A DNA stretch of 9,245 bases from a virus (taxonomy: Duplodnaviria > Heunggongvirae > Uroviricota > Caudoviricetes): IMG/VR virus record IMGVR_UViG_2534681736_000017, one strand, 5' to 3'. Positions within the stretch are counted from its first letter, which is position 1. Every line of letters starts with the position of its first letter. Below the pieces are notes generated by a model that worked only from the letters and a program-made list of their open reading frames with translations, was not told where the DNA came from and made no database searches. Made by a program: the position numbers and the translations under genes. This document shows positions 12 through 8,553 of the stretch, piece by piece.

Positions 12-38
12 AACAAAAAGCCCCACAATATGTGGGGC
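12..38 (-). terminator. Rho-independent terminator downstream of the small cargo ORF
   Basis: Inverted repeat GCCCCACA (20-27) / TGTGGGGC (31-38) with a 3-nt loop; on the minus strand the hairpin is followed by TTTTTGTT (complement of 12-19). Lies about 60 nt past the stop of the 98-283 ORF. Confidence 0.7.
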
Positions 39-97
39 TCCTTCGCGATTTATAGTAAAATAATCGATTCTCTAGCTGAAAAAATCTTTAAAAATTA

Positions 98-283
98 TCA
101 GCAATACGCAAGTTTTTTACCGTCATCCGGTACTAGTTTGATCACTACACCAGGATTCTTACGCTCTAACATCTGAGTTTGACTCCATGTAATACCAAAG
201 GTTTCCATTGGAGATGCATTGCCAGCAAAGAGTTCGGCGACGACTTTAGCTGCCTCAATCTCTATCTGCTCATGATGTTTCAT
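98..283 (-). CDS. Hypothetical small protein (61 aa), second gene of the cargo locus
   Basis: The ORF track gives 98-331 (77 aa). The internal ATG at 283-281 is preceded by AGGGG with about 5-nt spacing, whereas the ATG at 331 has no Shine-Dalgarno, so the shorter form MKHHEQIEIEAAKVV... is preferred. No transmembrane-like segment, so not a holin. No family recognised. Confidence 0.5.
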   Translation of the reverse strand: MKHHEQIEIEAAKVVAELFAGNASPMETFGITWSQTQMLERKNPGVVIKLVPDDGKKLAYC

Positions 284-474
284 AAAAATCCCCTTGTTCA
301 GCACTAAGCTGTAGTTGCTTCTTTGAAGCATAAAGGCAACAAAGTTTGTTACCTGAAGATGTATAAAGTAAAGCGTAGTACATTTTGTGTGTGCTTTGTG
401 TGGATCCAGATTGCATCAACTAAAAGAGGTTTTCAATACTTTTGTAATGATTCTGGAGAAATTAAGAATCTAAC

Positions 475-1017
475 TCACACTGATTGGTTAGGTAAAACGC
501 TCCTAAGCACCATTGCGCAACCACCTCGTTCGTAATCAGCAATGTACTCAAAACCACTTTCAGTATAGTATCTTATTGCCCCATCAACTGGACTAACTAA
601 AGCTATCGAATCAATAGATTCACCCTGAAGGTTCAGAAATCGTGCATATGCAGAGAAGCAATCCAAAACGATACCAAGCATCTGATGGTCTAGGTCTTCA
701 TGTGCATCATTACGTTTTTCCATCCAGCAAATATGCACCGCATTTTTCGGCTTACAGTAACACCCAAATGCAAATCCAATAGGCTCCCCACGATAATAAA
801 CAACTAGTTTTATCGGGTGTTCTTCCATCATATCCATAAACACTCGCGACTTTAGTCCGGGATCCCACCGCAGTTTATTGTTAGCCTTGAGGAACTCCAT
901 ATCTTTTAGTACCAGCTCGTCGGCATATACGAGCCCTAACGACTTATGAGGGAAGCGCCCTTTTAAATACTCTGCAACATTTTTAAATACTGCTGTTTGG
1001 AAGGCTTGAAACATCAT
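475..1017 (-). CDS. GNAT-fold-like putative acetyltransferase (180 aa), first gene after the pR'-like promoter and terminator
   Basis: Intact 180-aa ORF. By eye it fits a GNAT layout: strand-like VVYYRGEPIGFAFGCY, then HQMLGIVLDCFSAYARF (motif-A-like Q-x-x-G-x-V), then C-terminal IRYYTESGFEYI (motif-B-like aromatic-x-x-x-GF). The family assignment is recollection, not a search result. Weak SD (GGAT) before the ATG. Confidence 0.6.
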   Translation of the reverse strand: MMFQAFQTAVFKNVAEYLKGRFPHKSLGLVYADELVLKDMEFLKANNKLRWDPGLKSRVFMDMMEEHPIKLVVYYRGEPIGFAFGCYCKPKNAVHICWMEKRNDAHEDLDHQMLGIVLDCFSAYARFLNLQGESIDSIALVSPVDGAIRYYTESGFEYIADYERGGCAMVLRSVLPNQSV

Positions 1018-1095
1018 GTCGATCCAGACGAGACGAAAGTTTAAATTCTACCTACTCGCCGAATACCATTTCAATGCCACACATCTAAAATTCCG

Positions 1096-1120
1096 AAAAA
1101 AAACCCGCACATCAGCGGGT
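1096..1120 (-). terminator. tR'-like intrinsic terminator of the short late-leader transcript
   Basis: Stem ACCCGC (1103-1108) / GCGGGT (1115-1120), loop ACATCA. On the minus strand it is followed by a run of 7-8 T (complement of the A-run 1096-1102). The plus strand also has a T-rich tail, so it may act bidirectionally. Confidence 0.75.
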
Positions 1121-1168
1121 TTTCTACTTTTTATTAAAGCCGGACACACAATGCCTATCATTGAGAAA

Positions 1169-1196
1169 ATATTATCCATTTTTTTGAAAAATGCAA
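1169..1196 (-). promoter_or_regulatory. Candidate late promoter (pR'-like) immediately downstream of Q
   Basis: On the minus strand: -35 TTGCAT (1196-1191), 16-bp spacer, -10 TAATAT (1174-1169). Predicted start is about 65 nt upstream of the terminator at 1096-1120, which is the lambdoid pR'/short-RNA/tR' arrangement. Sequence-based prediction only. Confidence 0.5.
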
Positions 1197-1227
1197 GCAT
1201 CATGTCGCCATTTTCGTCGAAAATCAT

Positions 1228-1980
1228 TCATCTCGTCACTTTCCTCAATTGTGTCTCAGCATACGCTTCTTCCTGCCAGCACTTTGTAACCAGTTTATCA
1301 ATGACATCTGCATATCCTTTGTACCACTGATAATCCGTCAGGTCTGGTACCAGCTTCTGGACATGAAGCCGCGCCAGTGTGGTTGGTAAACGGCTAAACC
1401 GGTTTCCATTGCAACGCCCACAAACCTTATAAACAGGCGTGCCATGAAGCCTGGTTCTTTTTTCATCCAGGACAATACCTTTACCCTTACACCCTCTGCA
1501 CGCTGTGCTGACTTCTCCCTTACCATGACAATGCTGACACAGTTCCTTCACCCACTCTTCCTTGATAACAGATTCCCCGCTTCTGGAGTGTTTCACCACC
1601 TCGCGCAATACATCATGAAATCCAGTACCAGCACAATGCTCACAGCGAGCCTTACTTGCCGCAGACCTGGAATAATCAGCAAAGGCAAAATTCACAAGGT
1701 AAGGAATGATCTGTAGCCGGGTTTCTTCACTCAATTTGTTCAATGTCGGGTTATCCAGTGCCATCGCGTAATTGAGCAGACCTTCAATCGCAAACTGAGG
1801 ATCCTGAACACCAACTTTTGCCAGGAATAAGGCAAACCCAAGCGGTGCTTTCGACTGCACCATCCCCTGCGCAGCCATTACATCCGTAATTGTTAAACCA
1901 CCAGAGCCTGTCGCCGGTGCGTCATCGCTCAATTTTGGAGATTTTGGGGAGTAATATTTCGGTAAGGCTTCAAAGTTCAT
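1228..1980 (-). CDS. Q-like late-gene antitermination protein (250 aa) with four CxxCxGxG repeats
   Basis: Position is diagnostic: last gene of the early operon, directly upstream of the pR'-like promoter and terminator. Four Cys pairs (CEHCAGTG, CQHCHGKG, CRGCKGKG, CGRCNGNR) indicate zinc binding. Good SD (GGAG, 6-nt spacing) before the ATG at 1980. Resembles the 82-type Q family by recollection. Confidence 0.65.
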   Translation of the reverse strand: MNFEALPKYYSPKSPKLSDDAPATGSGGLTITDVMAAQGMVQSKAPLGFALFLAKVGVQDPQFAIEGLLNYAMALDNPTLNKLSEETRLQIIPYLVNFAFADYSRSAASKARCEHCAGTGFHDVLREVVKHSRSGESVIKEEWVKELCQHCHGKGEVSTACRGCKGKGIVLDEKRTRLHGTPVYKVCGRCNGNRFSRLPTTLARLHVQKLVPDLTDYQWYKGYADVIDKLVTKCWQEEAYAETQLRKVTR

Positions 1981-2990: not shown

Positions 2991-3800
2991 TCAATGAACG
3001 GTATCGAGCAGCTTTAACAGCTCAGGGAATCGGGATTCGAAGAAATGCGGCTGCGTCTCGCGCGGATTTGCGGGACTGGTGATGTTCTTGCCGAACATGC
3101 AGCCTTTCGCTGTCAGCGACCAGAATTTTTTGATGTTGTTAATCGCAGTGCGGCTGTATCGTTCACGTTGTTCAACGATCCCCAGCTTCGCCATCTGGTG
3201 ATATGCCTGATTAGCTGTCAGGCGGATACCATACTGCTTCAGCAGTGCACTCAATGATAGCGTGGGGCGGCTTGAGCCATCAGGCGCGTCAGCAGGAGCA
3301 TCAATGGCATAGCGCGGTGCCAGATTCGGTAAGCCAACAGCCTCCTGGAGTTTCTGACAGGCACCAAGCACTGAAGAGTTAGACAGGTTTAACTCCCGGC
3401 GCATAAAGTCCAGCAGGATCACGCCAGCCTGCATCTTGTCAGCAGCCTGTCCGGATAATTTTTCCGGTGCGCTGGTTACCATATCGAAAGTACGGATCAC
3501 CTTCAGATGGAATGACGGGCTGATCCACATTGCATAGGCATACACCAGTTCCTTGCAGACATACGTTCCCCGTTCATTTCCCCCATGAATCACACTCACC
3601 GGGTCAACACCCAAATTCTGGGTGTTGGTCAATTCATGAACAAGCTCAACAGTTTGTTGGCTGGAAAGAAACTTTCCCGGCTCCTTGGTTCTGGCATTTG
3701 CACCAGATGCTACTGCTGCGCGATGCAGATCGTTCAGGCTGTAACGCCCATAAGCATCACGACGAACTTCAATACCATCAATGACCATCAGATTATTCAT
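2991..3800 (-). CDS. KilA-N domain protein (putative antirepressor or regulatory protein), 269 aa
   Basis: The N-terminal 110 aa carry the KilA-N-type pattern (GRYSLNDLHRAA ... GTYVCKELVYAYAMWISPSFHLKVIRTFD). SD GAGGAG lies upstream of the ATG at 3800. The C-terminal half is unassigned. Confidence 0.7.
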   Translation of the reverse strand: MNNLMVIDGIEVRRDAYGRYSLNDLHRAAVASGANARTKEPGKFLSSQQTVELVHELTNTQNLGVDPVSVIHGGNERGTYVCKELVYAYAMWISPSFHLKVIRTFDMVTSAPEKLSGQAADKMQAGVILLDFMRRELNLSNSSVLGACQKLQEAVGLPNLAPRYAIDAPADAPDGSSRPTLSLSALLKQYGIRLTANQAYHQMAKLGIVEQRERYSRTAINNIKKFWSLTAKGCMFGKNITSPANPRETQPHFFESRFPELLKLLDTVH

Positions 3801-3819: not shown

Positions 3820-4209
3820 TCAGGCGGCTGCACCCGCCGTTTTCTCGTACTTACTGATAGTGATCTCGACCTTCCCTTCCGGGATAACCGGTCCCCACTC
3901 CACCAGCATTCTTTTCACCTGACTGTCGTCTTCCCACACACCCGCGTGGGTCAGGGCGTCAAACAGCGCCTTGTTATAGTTGTCCAGATCGCGGATCCGG
4001 TTATCCGGAGGAAACAACACGATCTCCACTGAAGCAGGTGCCGACGTTGGTTTCGGCAGACGACGTAACTGCTCAACTATTGCTGCGCACGCCGCGCTCT
4101 GGAATTTTCGCCCCGCCGCGCTTATCAGGCTCTTACCAGCAAACGCCCCTTTGTTGGGGTGTCGCCAGTACGTGTTCACGCTGGGCGGAAAAGGCAGGAT
4201 CAGCTTCAT
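3820..4209 (-). CDS. rusA: RusA-family Holliday junction resolvase (129 aa)
   Basis: LPFPPSVNTYWRH near the N-terminus plus the acidic motifs RDLDNYNKALFDALTHAGVWEDDSQV match RusA by recollection. The start ATG overlaps the upstream stop (ATGA). Confidence 0.85.
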   Translation of the reverse strand: MKLILPFPPSVNTYWRHPNKGAFAGKSLISAAGRKFQSAACAAIVEQLRRLPKPTSAPASVEIVLFPPDNRIRDLDNYNKALFDALTHAGVWEDDSQVKRMLVEWGPVIPEGKVEITISKYEKTAGAAA

Positions 4210-4532
4210 ACTTTCAGGTCCCTCTCATGTAACCAGTGGGTTGCACGCAGCCTTGCGTTTTCCTCACCGGCAAGCAGTGCGCGGATAATCCCGACCGCCT
4301 CGCTGTCGTCGTCCTTCACCGCGATATGAAGCGTTATCCCCCGGGCCACGCCACGCTTTATCGTGATGACGCCTTTTTTCTCCAGTGCGCGAAGATGCTC
4401 CACCGCTGCATTCACTGAACGGTATCCCAGCATGGTTGCCACCTCCTGATTGGTTGGCGGGAAGCCACGTTCTTTCTGATAAGAAATCAGCATATCCAGC
4501 ACCTGCTGCTGGCATTGAGTTAACGTCGTCAT
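4206..4532 (-). CDS. LexA DNA-binding-domain-only protein (108 aa), lacking the S24 peptidase domain
   Basis: Residues 3-70 (LTQCQQQVLDMLISYQKERGFPPTNQEVATMLGYRSVNAAVEHLRALEKKGVITIKRGVARGITL) align position by position with the E. coli LexA N-terminal winged-helix domain as I recall it (LTARQQEVFDLI...[36 protein letters not shown]...SRGIRL). Only about 35 residues follow, with no Ser/Lys dyad. ATGA overlaps at both ends. Confidence 0.8.
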   Translation of the reverse strand: MTTLTQCQQQVLDMLISYQKERGFPPTNQEVATMLGYRSVNAAVEHLRALEKKGVITIKRGVARGITLHIAVKDDDSEAVGIIRALLAGEENARLRATHWLHERDLKV

Positions 4533-5182
4533 GCCGCCATCTCCCTGACCAGTTTTTCTGCCTGCTGGCGAACCTGCGCCAGAAAGGCCTCACCACATGC
4601 CTCAAGTTCATAGCGCCCGATGTAGCTGATTGCCGGTCCCTTCCAGGTCTTGTCGAAAACAGCAATAGCACCAGCGAAGAAAGCGCCTGTCGGCACCTGC
4701 TTCTCATCCTTCGGGATAAACCAGGCAGGCAGTTCAAAACCAATACGCCCGCGAATAAAAGCAATATGATCTGCATCTTCCGGCCACCACACTTCGCTGG
4801 TGGCAGCTTTGATCAGGAAAACATAGCGCCCGCCTTTATCACGCATGGCACTGGCATGCTTCATGATGTAACGCATGCCGGTGATGTATTGCCCCTCATG
4901 CTGACTGGCGCGGCTGTATGGGGGATTACCAAAGGCAGCACCTTTAAGCTCCGCAAGACGTTCTGACCAGTCATGCGCCAGCGCGTTGTCTTCCGCAGTG
5001 TAATAAGCGGCACATTTGGCGTTATCACCGTCAGTGAACAGATCCAGAACAAACGGGCCAAACAGGGTGTTAATTCCCCAGAAAATGTTGTCCGGCGTGC
5101 GCCACTGATCGCCCACTTCCTTCAGTTCATGGGCTGGTTTGTTCCGCAGCTCCACCAGCGCCTGGCAATATTTATTACTCAT
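4529..5182 (-). CDS. Phage Dam-type N6-adenine DNA methyltransferase (217 aa from ATG at 5182)
   Basis: NPPY catalytic motif (FGNPPYS) is encoded at about 4916-4927. The ORF track extends to a GTG at 5215, but the ATG at 5182 has a GGGGG SD and overlaps the upstream stop as TAATG, so 5182 is preferred. Target specificity is unknown. Confidence 0.8.
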   Translation of the reverse strand: MSNKYCQALVELRNKPAHELKEVGDQWRTPDNIFWGINTLFGPFVLDLFTDGDNAKCAAYYTAEDNALAHDWSERLAELKGAAFGNPPYSRASQHEGQYITGMRYIMKHASAMRDKGGRYVFLIKAATSEVWWPEDADHIAFIRGRIGFELPAWFIPKDEKQVPTGAFFAGAIAVFDKTWKGPAISYIGRYELEACGEAFLAQVRQQAEKLVREMAA

Positions 5183-5670
5183 TAAGCCCCCACGTAATTC
5201 CCTGACAGATACCACTCTTCACCCGATACAGCGCGCTTGCTGCTTTTCCGTAAGCACCGCTCACAACGCGCCAGAAAATTGTTTCGTTCTGGCTGGGAGT
5301 GGCTTTCACGGAATGCCGCCATCCACACCGTTGCAGCACGACGGTATAAGCCCCTGGACTCCAGTTCTTCAGCCTGGCGGGTCAGGCACAAAATCACCCG
5401 GGGATCGTTAGTGCCGACATAGAAATTGCGCACAGGTCTGGTTTCACGAACTGGTTGTGGTTCCGGCTCCTGCGCTCTCTCAGTCAGGCGCGGGAAATGT
5501 CTGCGTGTATCCCCTTCACAACGGTGAGCCACACGCCCACTCTGACGTAACTTGCTTGCAGACTGCAGAACGCGCTGCCGTGAGTAACCTGCAAAAGCAT
5601 CCGCAATGTCTCCGGAAGTACAGCCCGGATGGGCTTCAATGAATTTCTGAACGTCATTCAAAAGACTCAT
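5182..5670 (-). CDS. PerC/ANR-family-like transcriptional regulator with an N-terminal extension (162 aa from ATG at 5670)
   Basis: LTRQAEELESRGLYRRAATVWMAAF matches the PerC-type signature (AE-LE--G--RRAA--W) by recollection. ATG at 5670 is preceded by GGGGGTGA; the ORF track starts at a GTG at 5676. Confidence 0.6.
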   Translation of the reverse strand: MSLLNDVQKFIEAHPGCTSGDIADAFAGYSRQRVLQSASKLRQSGRVAHRCEGDTRRHFPRLTERAQEPEPQPVRETRPVRNFYVGTNDPRVILCLTRQAEELESRGLYRRAATVWMAAFRESHSQPERNNFLARCERCLRKSSKRAVSGEEWYLSGNYVGA

Positions 5671-5672
5671 GC

Positions 5673-6614
5673 TCACCCCCTGAATCCTGCCGGGATCTGG
5701 CTGTAGTCCACGTTGTCGTAACTGGCTTTGAAGTACGGGTCCTCGCGTTTTTCGGTGTACGTGCTGACGGACGGCGATAAGCGCAGGGAAAGCTCATCCC
5801 ATTTTTCCCGCAGCTTCGACGGGCTGAGCACGTTACGGCACCAGAACGGATCGCGACTGACGCGGCTGTACATCTCGCAGATTTGTTTATGAGTACGACC
5901 ATCCTGCACACACATCAGGCGAATTTCGTTTGCCCAGGCTGTCCAGTTCGGTTCTTTGGGACGAACCACCTCGCCGTCACATTCGGCGGCATGCTCGTAC
6001 AGGGCGATGATTTTTTTCCAGAGCCACTGTGCACAGGTCAAATCATCCTGCGTCCCCCACTGGCGCTTTTTAGGGCTGAATACAACCGCATCAGGATGGC
6101 GAGTTAAAAAATCCTGTTCATCCGTCTGCGTGTCCGGTTGCGAAGCGTCCGGACGAGAAGGTTTTTTATCTGACGGATCATGTTTTGATTTTACTGACGG
6201 ATCCCCGCCAGATTCTGACGGGTGAAAACCCGCTTTTTTGCCAGATTTCGACGCATCAAATTTTGACGGGTCAGATTTTGATGCGTCAGATTTTGACGGG
6301 TCAGAATCTGACAGTTGAGAAAATGCCGCTGCCTGAAGCTTCGCAACGTTAAGCTGATAAACATTCGACGCATTGCGGTTACCCTGGCGACGCGCCTTAC
6401 GCGTTAACCAGCCTTCTGCTTCCAGCCGTGCGATAGCCGTTCTGACGGTGCTCATCCCCGCGCCAATCTGGCGGGCAATGGTTTCAATTGATGGCCAGCA
6501 CACACCTTCGTCATTACTGAAATCAGCCAGGCGGGCCATAATTGCCACGCTGGATAACTTCATGCCTGACGCAGCGCAACCATCCCATACATAGCCGGTT
6601 AATTTAGTGCTCAT
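5673..6614 (-). CDS. Replication initiator (O-like): N-terminal wHTH, repeat-encoded acidic/Ser-rich linker, C-terminal domain; 313 aa
   Basis: N-terminus (CWPSIETIARQIGAGMSTVRTAIARLEAEGWLTRK) is a winged-HTH of the kind seen in phage replication initiators. The central linker DPSKSDASKSDPSKFDASKS is encoded by tandem DNA iterons. SD GAGG with 6-nt spacing precedes the ATG at 6614. Confidence 0.7.
   Translation of the reverse strand: MSTKLTGYVWDGCAASGMKLSSVAIMARLADFSNDEGVCWPSIETIARQIGAGMSTVRTAIARLEAEGWLTRKARRQGNRNASNVYQLNVAKLQAAAFSQLSDSDPSKSDASKSDPSKFDASKSGKKAGFHPSESGGDPSVKSKHDPSDKKPSRPDASQPDTQTDEQDFLTRHPDAVVFSPKKRQWGTQDDLTCAQWLWKKIIALYEHAAECDGEVVRPKEPNWTAWANEIRLMCVQDGRTHKQICEMYSRVSRDPFWCRNVLSPSKLREKWDELSLRLSPSVSTYTEKREDPYFKASYDNVDYSQIPAGFRG
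6164..6313. repeat. Iteron array (about eight copies of roughly GATTYTGACGGRTCA), putative phage replication origin inside the initiator gene
   Basis: Copies begin near 6164, 6187, 6209, 6242, 6258, 6272, 6287 and 6303. The last four are contiguous at 15-bp period, for example AGATTTTGATGCGTCA, AGATTTTGACGGGTCA, GAATCTGACAG. This is analogous to the lambda ori iterons within gene O. Confidence 0.65.
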
Positions 6615-7860: not shown

Positions 7861-8553
7861 ATGAACATAGGAAACCGAGTCAGACAACTTCGCCAAGCGA
7901 AGAACATGAAAATCGCCGATCTCGCTGAAGCGATAGGAGTAGATGCGGCGAACATCTCGCGCTTAGAAACGGGTAAGCAAAAACAATTTACCGAACAAAC
8001 ACTGAGTAATATTGCCAAGAGCTTAGGTGTTGATATTGCTGATCTCTTTACCTCTGCCCACAAAAGTAATACTGTATATAAAAACAGTAATAATGAGGAT
8101 GTTGCGCAGGTGAAGGATGTGTTCCGTATTGAAATGCTGGATATCAGTGCCAGTGCGGGAAATGGCCTTATCCAGGGCGGTGATGTCATTGATGTGATTC
8201 ATGCCATCGAATACAGAACTGATAATGCTGTATCAATGTTCGGCGGACGACCAGCCAATCACATCAAAGTTATCAACGTTCGTGGGGACAGTATGTGTCC
8301 AACCATTGAGCCAGGAGATCTCATCTTCGTTGATGTCAGCATCAATCAGTTTGATGGTGATGGTATATATGTCTTTGGTTTTGATGACAAAATATACGTT
8401 AAAAGACTTCAAATGATTCCTGACAAACTGCTGGTGATTTCTGATAACCAGATTTACCGTGAATGGGGAATTACTAGCGAAAACGAACACCGATTCATGG
8501 TCTTTGGAAAGGTCTTAATCAGTCAGTCGCAAACCCTTAAGAGACATAATTAA
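7861..8553 (+). CDS. cI-like phage repressor (HTH_XRE N-terminal domain plus S24 LexA-like autopeptidase domain), 230 aa
   Basis: N-terminal HTH (MKIADLAEAIGVDAANISRLETGKQ). Candidate Ala-Gly cleavage site A99-G100 (SASAGNG), Ser nucleophile in RGDSMCP (S144) and Lys in YVKRL (K181). No SD before the ATG, so possibly leaderless like lambda cI. Confidence 0.9.
   Translation: MNIGNRVRQLRQAKNMKIADLAEAIGVDAANISRLETGKQKQFTEQTLSNIAKSLGVDIADLFTSAHKSNTVYKNSNNEDVAQVKDVFRIEMLDISASAGNGLIQGGDVIDVIHAIEYRTDNAVSMFGGRPANHIKVINVRGDSMCPTIEPGDLIFVDVSINQFDGDGIYVFGFDDKIYVKRLQMIPDKLLVISDNQIYREWGITSENEHRFMVFGKVLISQSQTLKRHN
8070..8089. promoter_or_regulatory. Near-consensus LexA (SOS) box inside the cI-like coding sequence
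   Basis: TACTGTATATAAAAACAGTA matches the E. coli LexA box consensus TACTGTATATATATACAGTA at 18 of 20 positions, with perfect CTGT-N8-ACAG. It is the only CTGT-N8-ACAG in the window. Function is unproven. Confidence 0.45.

Follow-up and report, generated by a model that had tools for sequence, protein, structure and literature searches.

The DNA stretch analysed here (9,245 nucleotides of IMG/VR virus record IMGVR_UViG_2534681736_000017, Caudoviricetes; hereafter, the window) carries on its minus strand, at positions 475–1017, a gene for a 180-aa protein, followed downstream by a 61-aa open reading frame (ORF). We found that the two genes make up an accessory cassette of a lambdoid prophage, in which the 180-aa product is, according to its predicted structure, a very divergent GNAT-fold protein, and the 61-aa ORF is its obligate, co-diverging partner. 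We hold these structural and genomic statements about the cassette with high confidence. The fold is of a known kind. Novelty lies in the organisation, in which a GNAT-fold protein whose loop is non-canonical is combined with a downstream partner lacking a ribbon-helix-helix (RHH) domain, and copies of the partner core occur in T4-like phages. As to function, a role in phage conflict is the possibility that we tentatively favour and weigh below against its alternatives.

The 61-aa ORF is an obligate partner of the GNAT-like gene

A homologue of the 61-aa ORF lies on the same strand, 82–226 nucleotides (nt) downstream of the GNAT-like gene, in all 13 lineages examined (E. coli, Erwinia, Proteus, Morganella, Pragia, Limnobaculum, two Photorhabdus species, Salinivibrio, V. 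vulnificus, Psychrosphaera and two further contigs). It is likewise present in every one of the 26 IMG/VR contigs that carry the enzyme gene. When 5426 E. coli genomes were considered, each gene was found in 98, as a single full-length copy at least 99% identical, and the partner follows the GNAT-like gene in 98 of 98. About 2% of complete E. coli genomes have the cassette, many O157:H7 strains among them. Divergence of the two proteins runs in parallel, the partner being 46–62% identical where the enzyme is 46–65% identical. None of the loci examined had the enzyme gene without the partner (one contig, L016, ends 57 bp after the gene). The initial annotation had rightly placed the 61-aa ORF next downstream; what did not stand is its status as a mere unassigned neighbour, since it is a conserved, obligate and co-diverging partner in all lineages examined. 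In place of a lone enzyme, the reading is now that of a module of two genes.

Five kinds of genomic slot host the same cassette. It is found between Q and holin genes, with three different Q families (E. coli, Morganella, Proteus and locus L028); after lysis genes in Pragia; inside the tail operon, between gpK-like and gpI/J-like genes, in Erwinia; in a non-phage island beside HicB and chloramphenicol acetyltransferase (CAT) genes in Photorhabdus; and between gpA and the portal gene (gpQ) of P2-like prophages in Salinivibrio, where it stands beside putAbiC, and in V. vulnificus. The gpA–gpQ cassettes are those of distant family members with their partner. This last interval is a validated defence hotspot of P2-like phages (PMC9122126, PMC13586616); the two papers that describe it make no mention of GNAT or acetyltransferase.

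The partner encoded in the window combines a helical, acidic core (LFAxxxSPMExFGxxWxQxxMLER) with a flexible tail whose last residue is Cys. Across homologues the conserved core reads LFAxxxTPMExFGxxWxQxExLE, and the family is acidic, with a median isoelectric point (pI) of 4.8. The predicted model has three short helices (residues 3–18, 25–28 and 33–42) followed by a low-confidence tail. Pfam and structure searches returned no match for the partner, and no RHH/DUF1778 domain was found in it. The start of the 61-aa frame is backed by homologues, RefSeq and an AAGGGGA Shine-Dalgarno sequence. Many homologues, not all, have a Cys close to the C-terminus: it is absent in homologue P0089, and the whole tail is missing from the phage protein gp246 (see below) and from some Xenorhabdus copies, for which reason we downgraded a functional role of this residue. 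A reading of the partner as a double-glycine leader peptide or bacteriocin precursor was rejected, because the 'AG/AD-N/G' position is not conserved.

The 180-aa protein has a divergent GNAT fold

The gene starts with ATG and encodes exactly the peptides quoted in the initial annotation. Full-length homologues with 26–87% identity are present in many Gammaproteobacteria. The sole family match is a full-length one to phrog_11949 (E 3e-131), to which no function is assigned, and the RefSeq label of the product is 'hypothetical protein'. The homologues, the PHROG match and the confident structural model together establish a real gene rather than a chance ORF. The family is small, amounting to 28 clusters (90% identity) in a set of 5.8 billion proteins and to 25 representatives (50% identity) in one of 1.84 billion. 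Its hosts are Escherichia, Cronobacter, Erwinia, Proteus, Morganella, Pragia, Limnobaculum, Photorhabdus, Salinivibrio, Vibrio vulnificus and Psychrosphaera.

No sequence profile puts the protein in a GNAT family. Pfam, NCBIfam and PADLOC searches gave no match for it, and when curated GNAT profiles (Pfam Acetyltransf_* and NCBIfam) were compared with the family, Acetyltransf_1 was touched by just two of 29 members, at E 0.11. Alignment of the family profile with E. coli RimI by hhalign reached 9% probability and covered the β2–β3 hairpin alone. Searches of PDB sequences with phmmer and the family profile yielded chance matches only; the weak ones to GDP-mannose dehydrogenase and AhpC (E 0.02–1.7) were judged to be of this sort and rejected as an identity for the protein.

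It was structure prediction, together with structural searches, that bore out the GNAT-like character proposed from the order of sequence elements. In an AlphaFold2 model built on the family alignment (pLDDT 86, pTM 0.84), the elements follow one another as αN (residues 2–21), β1, α1, α2, β2 (66–75), β3 (78–88), β4 (93–101), α3 (108–130), β5 (137–141), α4 (145–153), β6 (157–159) and β7. Apart from the additional N-terminal helix, this is the order of the GNAT core, β1-α1-α2-β2-β3-β4-α3-β5-α4-β6(-β7) (PMC4964394). The peptides from which the fold had been proposed take the corresponding places in the model: VVYYRGEPIGFAFGCY forms the β2–β3 hairpin, HQMLGIVLDCFSAYARF lies within α3, after β4, and IRYYTESGFEYI makes up α4 and β6. 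Solved GNAT structures are significantly similar to the model, and virtually all Foldseek matches among viral predicted structures are GNATs (TM 0.4–0.58). Streptothricin, glyphosate and aminoglycoside-type enzymes are among the close structural matches, while TacT and AtaT come no nearer to the model than RimI or Naa enzymes. Because the ranking is flat, it establishes the GNAT fold and does not indicate a subfamily. Compared with small GNATs (RimI, Naa20/Naa50 and streptothricin- or aminoglycoside-type enzymes), to which it is 5–17% identical, the modelled protein differs in its additional N-terminal helix, in its obligate partner gene, and in having E-K-R-x-D-A-x-x-D in place of the Gly-rich pyrophosphate loop.

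Motif A is located where the initial annotation had put it, whereas the signature of the motif is missing. The P-loop consensus of GNATs is Gln/Arg-x-x-Gly-x-Gly/Ala, in the loop N-terminal to α3 (PMC4964394). In our protein the loop before α3, R102-N-D-A-H-E107, is glycine-free and departs from this consensus. The sequence Q112-M-L-G115 ('HQMLG') lies one turn into α3 and is not the pyrophosphate loop; Q112 is kept in 16 of 29 family members, and position 115 is Pro in 14 and Gly in nine. The hallmark of the family at the β4/α3 junction is E100-K101-R102-x-D104-A105-x-x-D108, conserved among the same 29 proteins in 28 (E100), 27 (K101), 25 (R102), 25 (D104), 21 (A105) and 22 (D108) cases. Motif B, proposed at the C-terminus, is present: Y150 (25 of 29), Y151 (27), G155 (25) and F156 (27) are nearly invariant and fall in α4 and β6 of the model. 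A tyrosine of α4 is the general acid in many GNATs. Judged by sequence, the Tyr...Gly-Phe motif B of this family looks canonical, with the Tyr as a candidate catalytic residue.

Conservation is strongest at catalytic elements, that is, the E-K-R at the end of β4, the Tyr-Tyr of α4, and P143 after β5, which argues for a working site. Active GNATs with atypical P-loops have been described (MtAAC(2')-Ic, HpPseH), as have inactive GNAT domains devoid of P-loop residues, such as the central domain of Eis (PMC4964394). Given the former, the missing P-loop weakens the case for activity without excluding it; the acyl donor, and acyl-CoA use in general, appear uncertain for the 180-aa protein.

Architecture of the cassette and its insertion slot

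The pair forms a self-contained two-gene accessory cassette, or 'moron', at positions 15–1097 of the minus strand, between the Q gene with its late terminator and the lysis genes (Table 1). Read on the minus strand, the window corresponds to the early-right/nin region of a lambdoid prophage. Megablast similarity to SfV, mEp460 and Stx2c-converting phages ends at ~1097, right after the terminator, so that the sequence to the left is variable cargo; its GC content is 0.39–0.42, versus 0.48–0.60 in the backbone. The SfV counterpart of the late terminator hairpin is annotated as a rho-independent terminator, and positions 1018–1227 are a Q-dependent late leader and terminator common to SfV-type phages, in agreement with the statement of the initial annotation that no RHH gene lies upstream. 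Its description of the 180-aa gene as phage cargo is likewise correct: the gene sits downstream of Q and the late terminator, in the Q-to-lysis slot occupied by stx in Stx phages. In full-length relatives the cassette is followed by an N-terminally incomplete DNA-methyltransferase gene, and then by holin and lysis genes.

Table 1. Positions of the cassette elements and of backbone genes in the window
Feature	Position	Strand	Remarks
Terminator-like hairpin	15..43	-	13-bp stem + T-run; after the partner gene; putative
61-aa conserved partner gene	98..283	-	WP_000680348.1; phrog_11292; next gene downstream of 475-1017
Spacer between the two genes	284..474	-	191 nt; hairpin 334-354; TTGAAA-N15-TGCAAT element 410-436
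180-aa divergent GNAT-fold (predicted) protein gene	475..1017	-	ATG start; WP_021519681.1; phrog_11949
Sigma70-like promoter site	1045..1074	-	TTGAAA-18-TAGAAT; consensus match 10/12; upstream of the GNAT-like gene, downstream of the late terminator; putative
Late (tR'-type) terminator hairpin	1100..1123	-	AAAACCCGC...GCGGGTTTT + T-run; right-hand limit of the cargo insert
Q antiterminator gene	1228..1980	-	Pfam Antiterm E 8e-53; phrog_127; labelled Q in relatives; defines the late-operon slot
O-like replication gene	5673-6614		backbone gene
cI	7861-8553	+	backbone gene

Our promoter, terminator and internal-promoter calls are consensus matches and therefore putative. The sigma70-like site upstream of the GNAT-like gene has a counterpart at the same relative place in an independent Morganella prophage (TTTACA-18-TATAAT, matching the consensus in 11 of 12 positions). 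The initial annotation had placed the gene under the phage late promoter; the slot is indeed that of a late-operon gene, and, with a promoter-like site between late terminator and gene in both prophages, the late promoter does not appear to be its sole driver.

The two genes never overlap, and their spacer keeps to the range given above in all lineages. At the equivalent position of the spacer, a strong hairpin with a T-run is found in Erwinia, Pragia, Limnobaculum, Photorhabdus and locus L003, and such a structure separates the genes in at least six lineages; folding of the spacer RNA gave z = -2.2. Upstream of the hairpin, the otherwise diverged spacers of E. coli, Erwinia and L003 have the element TTGAAA-N15-(T/G)GCAA(T/G) in common, and the Salinivibrio spacer contains a promoter-like site. 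In the window this element (410–436) sits just past the stop codon of the GNAT-like gene; going by its sequence, it might serve the partner as an internal promoter, or else mark where a short RNA terminating at the hairpin begins. No Rfam match was obtained in the cassette spacer, all sub-threshold ones lying at 1095–1191. Terminators equivalent to that after the partner gene were seen in Erwinia, Pragia and Salinivibrio. ORFs of ~140 aa that follow the pair at three loci are not mutually homologous and were rejected as a third component, so that the unit has two genes.

With a putative promoter and terminators of its own, deviant GC content, patchy distribution and a backbone breakpoint at the late terminator, the cassette has the marks of a moron. 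Like the lambdoid morons stx of Stx phages and orf47/orf48 of SfV, it occupies the slot right after the late terminator, carries its own promoter-like site and terminator-like hairpins, is lower in GC than the backbone and is patchily distributed. Unlike them, it brings unrelated cargo and also moves among very different slots.

The incomplete methyltransferase gene lies just past window position 1, at 3526–3840 of L018 (O157:H7 FRIK944) and at 5526–5816 of L001. SfV has intact orf47/orf48 at this place. The incomplete gene looks like a scar of cassette acquisition.

Copies of the partner without the GNAT-like gene

The dependence between the two genes is one-sided. A prophage of X. poinarii has a full-length partner without the enzyme in the Q-holin slot, a prophage of X. 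bovienii has a truncated one after a Tad2-like/DUF7823 gene, and two more Xenorhabdus-type viral contigs carry the partner only. Outside prophages, gp246 of Proteus phage phiP4-3 (T4-like, Straboviridae) is a 47-aa protein that consists of the conserved partner core only, and Shigella phage vB_SdyM_006 has an unannotated partner-core ORF (L083, 1501–1641). More diverged versions of the core are encoded by Providencia phages PSTRCR_127 and PSTRCR_121 and by Morganella phage Rgz1, whose gp230 (L082, 1483–1803) has a different C-terminal extension. Comparison of the partner with the T4-like core by hhalign revealed significant homology (98.2% probability, E 3.5e-14, 39 columns). The T4-like copies are nearest to the Proteus and Xenorhabdus/Photorhabdus partner clades, the E. 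coli partner ranking 27th and 36th of 37. No homologue of the enzyme was found in phage records except in the prophage-derived ON470584. We infer that the enzyme is an effector that cannot go without its partner, and that the partner is valuable on its own.

The T4 protein Dmd is a phage antitoxin-like inhibitor of RnlA/LsoA. The present case resembles it in that a T4-like phage has a small solo protein, and that prophages of the same host group contain a two-gene module whose small partner is homologous to this protein. It differs in that Dmd is not known to be homologous to RnlB, whereas gp246 is a true homologue of the partner core.

Some details of the partner-only loci deserve mention. 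In X. poinarii (L026, 4348–5918) the orphan partner is flanked by two pairs, HigB/HigA and ParE/HTH, on the opposite strand; the Q-to-holin slot here has become a gathering place of toxin-antitoxin modules. In X. bovienii (L025, 4211–4882) a 223-aa Tad2-like/DUF7823 protein is encoded directly upstream of the partner, where the GNAT-like gene normally sits. In Rgz1 gp230 the similarity continues past the annotated ATG in the upstream direction (SLVNRLFDNGKTP...), and no canonical start codon precedes it. This points to a start that is wrongly annotated or non-canonical, or else to a gene that has lost its N-terminal end.

Possible function of the two-gene module

The reading that we tentatively prefer is that of a GNAT-fold effector with a small neutraliser, acting in phage conflict in a defence or toxin-like role. 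The GNAT-fold protein would acylate a cellular or phage target, or at least bind it via the acyltransferase cleft, and this action would harm the infecting phage or the cell. The small protein would bind and neutralise the effector through the conserved TPMExFGxxW core. In the lysogen, the putative promoter of the cassette would drive the effector, with the spacer terminator limiting expression of the partner; upon induction, read-through from the late promoter by Q-modified RNA polymerase would raise partner expression. Virulent T4-like phages of the same host groups would carry the neutraliser core alone as a counter-measure. In its fullest form, this reading describes an undescribed prophage anti-phage system in which a 61-aa off-switch, expressed by Q read-through, prevents self-inhibition by an effector with a non-canonical GNAT loop, and in which the off-switch core has been taken up as counter-defence by T4-like phages of Morganellaceae (phiP4-3 gp246 and relatives). 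All of this being true at once is rather unlikely.

Several observations weigh against an effector and its neutraliser. The defence models of PADLOC-DB v2.0.0 match neither protein, and location in a defence hotspot is an association only. With the Gly-rich P-loop absent and the loop acidic, the use of acyl-CoA is uncertain. The layout is odd for a toxin-antitoxin system, since the putative toxin gene comes first and a gap of 82–226 nt follows; a strong terminator often precedes the putative antidote gene, which would create a risk of un-neutralised effector unless there is an internal promoter, hinted at by consensus matches only. Partner-only copies of Xenorhabdus are partly truncated and could be decay remnants, and the small helical domain that T4-like phages also have may function independently.

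In the strongest alternative, itself doubtful, an enzyme with an obligate adaptor, activator or substrate serves the phage in host takeover or anti-defence. The small protein alone would bind a host or defence target, hence its solo occurrence in T4-like phages, and temperate phages would add the enzyme, which would need the small protein to find or modify this target; in a variant, the enzyme modifies the flexible, Cys-bearing tail of the small protein. An enzyme that depends on its partner is equally expected never to occur without it, while the partner sometimes occurs alone. Enzyme-first order, a long spacer and a terminator fit better here than with a classical toxin-antitoxin operon; in lambdoid contexts the cassette is always co-directional with the late operon; and at the X. 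bovienii locus the partner follows a Tad2-like protein, of a family named for an anti-defence protein. Phage GNATs that act on host defence exist, AcrVA5 being one. Against an adaptor stand the sigma70-like site past the late terminator, suggestive of expression in the lysogen, and the surroundings of the cassette, as the P2 gpA–gpQ hotspot and the toxin-antitoxin modules represent mostly defence rather than anti-defence genes. Its variant suffers from the irregular occurrence of the tail and its Cys, described above for P0089 and gp246.

The 180-aa protein could also be a pseudoenzyme, that is, a catalytically inactive GNAT scaffold that binds its partner or target without acyl transfer; we regard this as unlikely. 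The absence of the Q/R-x-x-G-x-G/A loop, the acidic N-D-A-H-E-D in its place, Pro at position 115 in half of the family, and the precedent of the Eis central domain (PMC4964394) speak for it. The peak of conservation at catalytic elements speaks against it, as do MtAAC(2')-Ic and HpPseH, which are active with atypical P-loops (PMC4964394).

Quite improbable is a lysogenic-conversion enzyme whose substrate is a small molecule (an antibiotic, microcin, metabolite or envelope precursor), the small ORF being either a regulator or a hitch-hiker with no relation to it. In favour of this, acetylation of small molecules is the task of many GNATs, the close structural matches include streptothricin, glyphosate and aminoglycoside-type enzymes, a CAT gene adjoins the Photorhabdus cassette, and the putative promoter would allow expression in the lysogen. 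Yet one would not expect a stand-alone resistance enzyme to be strictly co-inherited and to co-diverge with a partner over ~13 lineages, the family has very few members, restricted to accessory slots of prophages, and the stand-alone partner core in virulent phages would go unexplained.

Least probable of all is a canonical type II toxin of the TacT/AtaT/ItaT/KacT type that acetylates aminoacyl-tRNA with acetyl-CoA, with the 61-aa protein as antitoxin: unlike in TacAT, AtaRT, ItaRT and KacAT, the partner is all-helical, with no RHH/DUF1778 domain or structural match, its gene lies downstream rather than upstream, across a gap that often holds a terminator, and the GNAT-like protein has no P-loop consensus, is matched by no GNAT profile and is acidic (median pI of the family about 5.7–6.1), which would argue against broad tRNA binding. 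The view of the initial annotation that this is not a canonical GNAT-RHH toxin-antitoxin pair is in line with these findings; its suggestion of a tRNA-acetylating toxin fared poorly, given the acidic proteins and a model no closer to TacT and AtaT than to RimI or Naa enzymes.

Literature searches on the accessions, and on GNAT together with prophage defence, returned nothing specific, and neither family is mentioned or annotated there. If the cassette does encode an effector and its neutraliser, it would be a new GNAT-based phage-conflict module among RefSeq 'hypothetical proteins', extending GNAT toxin-like biology beyond the GNAT-RHH paradigm and showing that the inhibitor of a defence can be tied to the antitermination switch of the prophage itself. 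A natural counter-measure would then exist in virulent phages that are therapy candidates against Proteus, Morganella and Providencia. A conservative reading, too, leaves two 'hypothetical' families with an assigned fold, a delimited genetic unit and a partnership that can be tested.

Other features of the window

Besides the genes listed in Table 1, the prophage backbone in the window includes Dam, LexA-like, RusA, KilA-N and DUF968 genes. At 1095–1191 (minus strand), the leader lying between Q and the late terminator matched the Rfam families isrK and Trp/Leu attenuator leaders below threshold (E 0.06–0.14), and is probably a short pR'-tR' late leader RNA. The small RNA isrK is an Hfq-binding RNA of Gifsy prophages. 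A 59-aa ORF at 1048–1227 (minus strand) was rejected as a gene, as it has no family match and overlaps both the late terminator and the promoter-like site of the cassette.

Within the O-like gene, positions 6242–6305 contain a 15-bp unit repeated 4.3 times (or a 30-bp unit repeated 2.1 times) that encodes SKSD(A/P)-type peptide repeats. These are probably origin iterons within the O gene, as in lambda. Between replication and nin-type genes, a PerC-family protein (YfdN-like; Pfam PerC E 8e-8) and a small LexA-like winged-helix protein are encoded at 5182–5676 and 4206–4532 of the minus strand, respectively; they are possible regulators with host effects. In the O157:H7 prophage copy, iss, which encodes a bor-like serum-survival lipoprotein, comes right after the lysis cassette (L018, 1791–2084) and is a second lysogenic-conversion cargo of this prophage.

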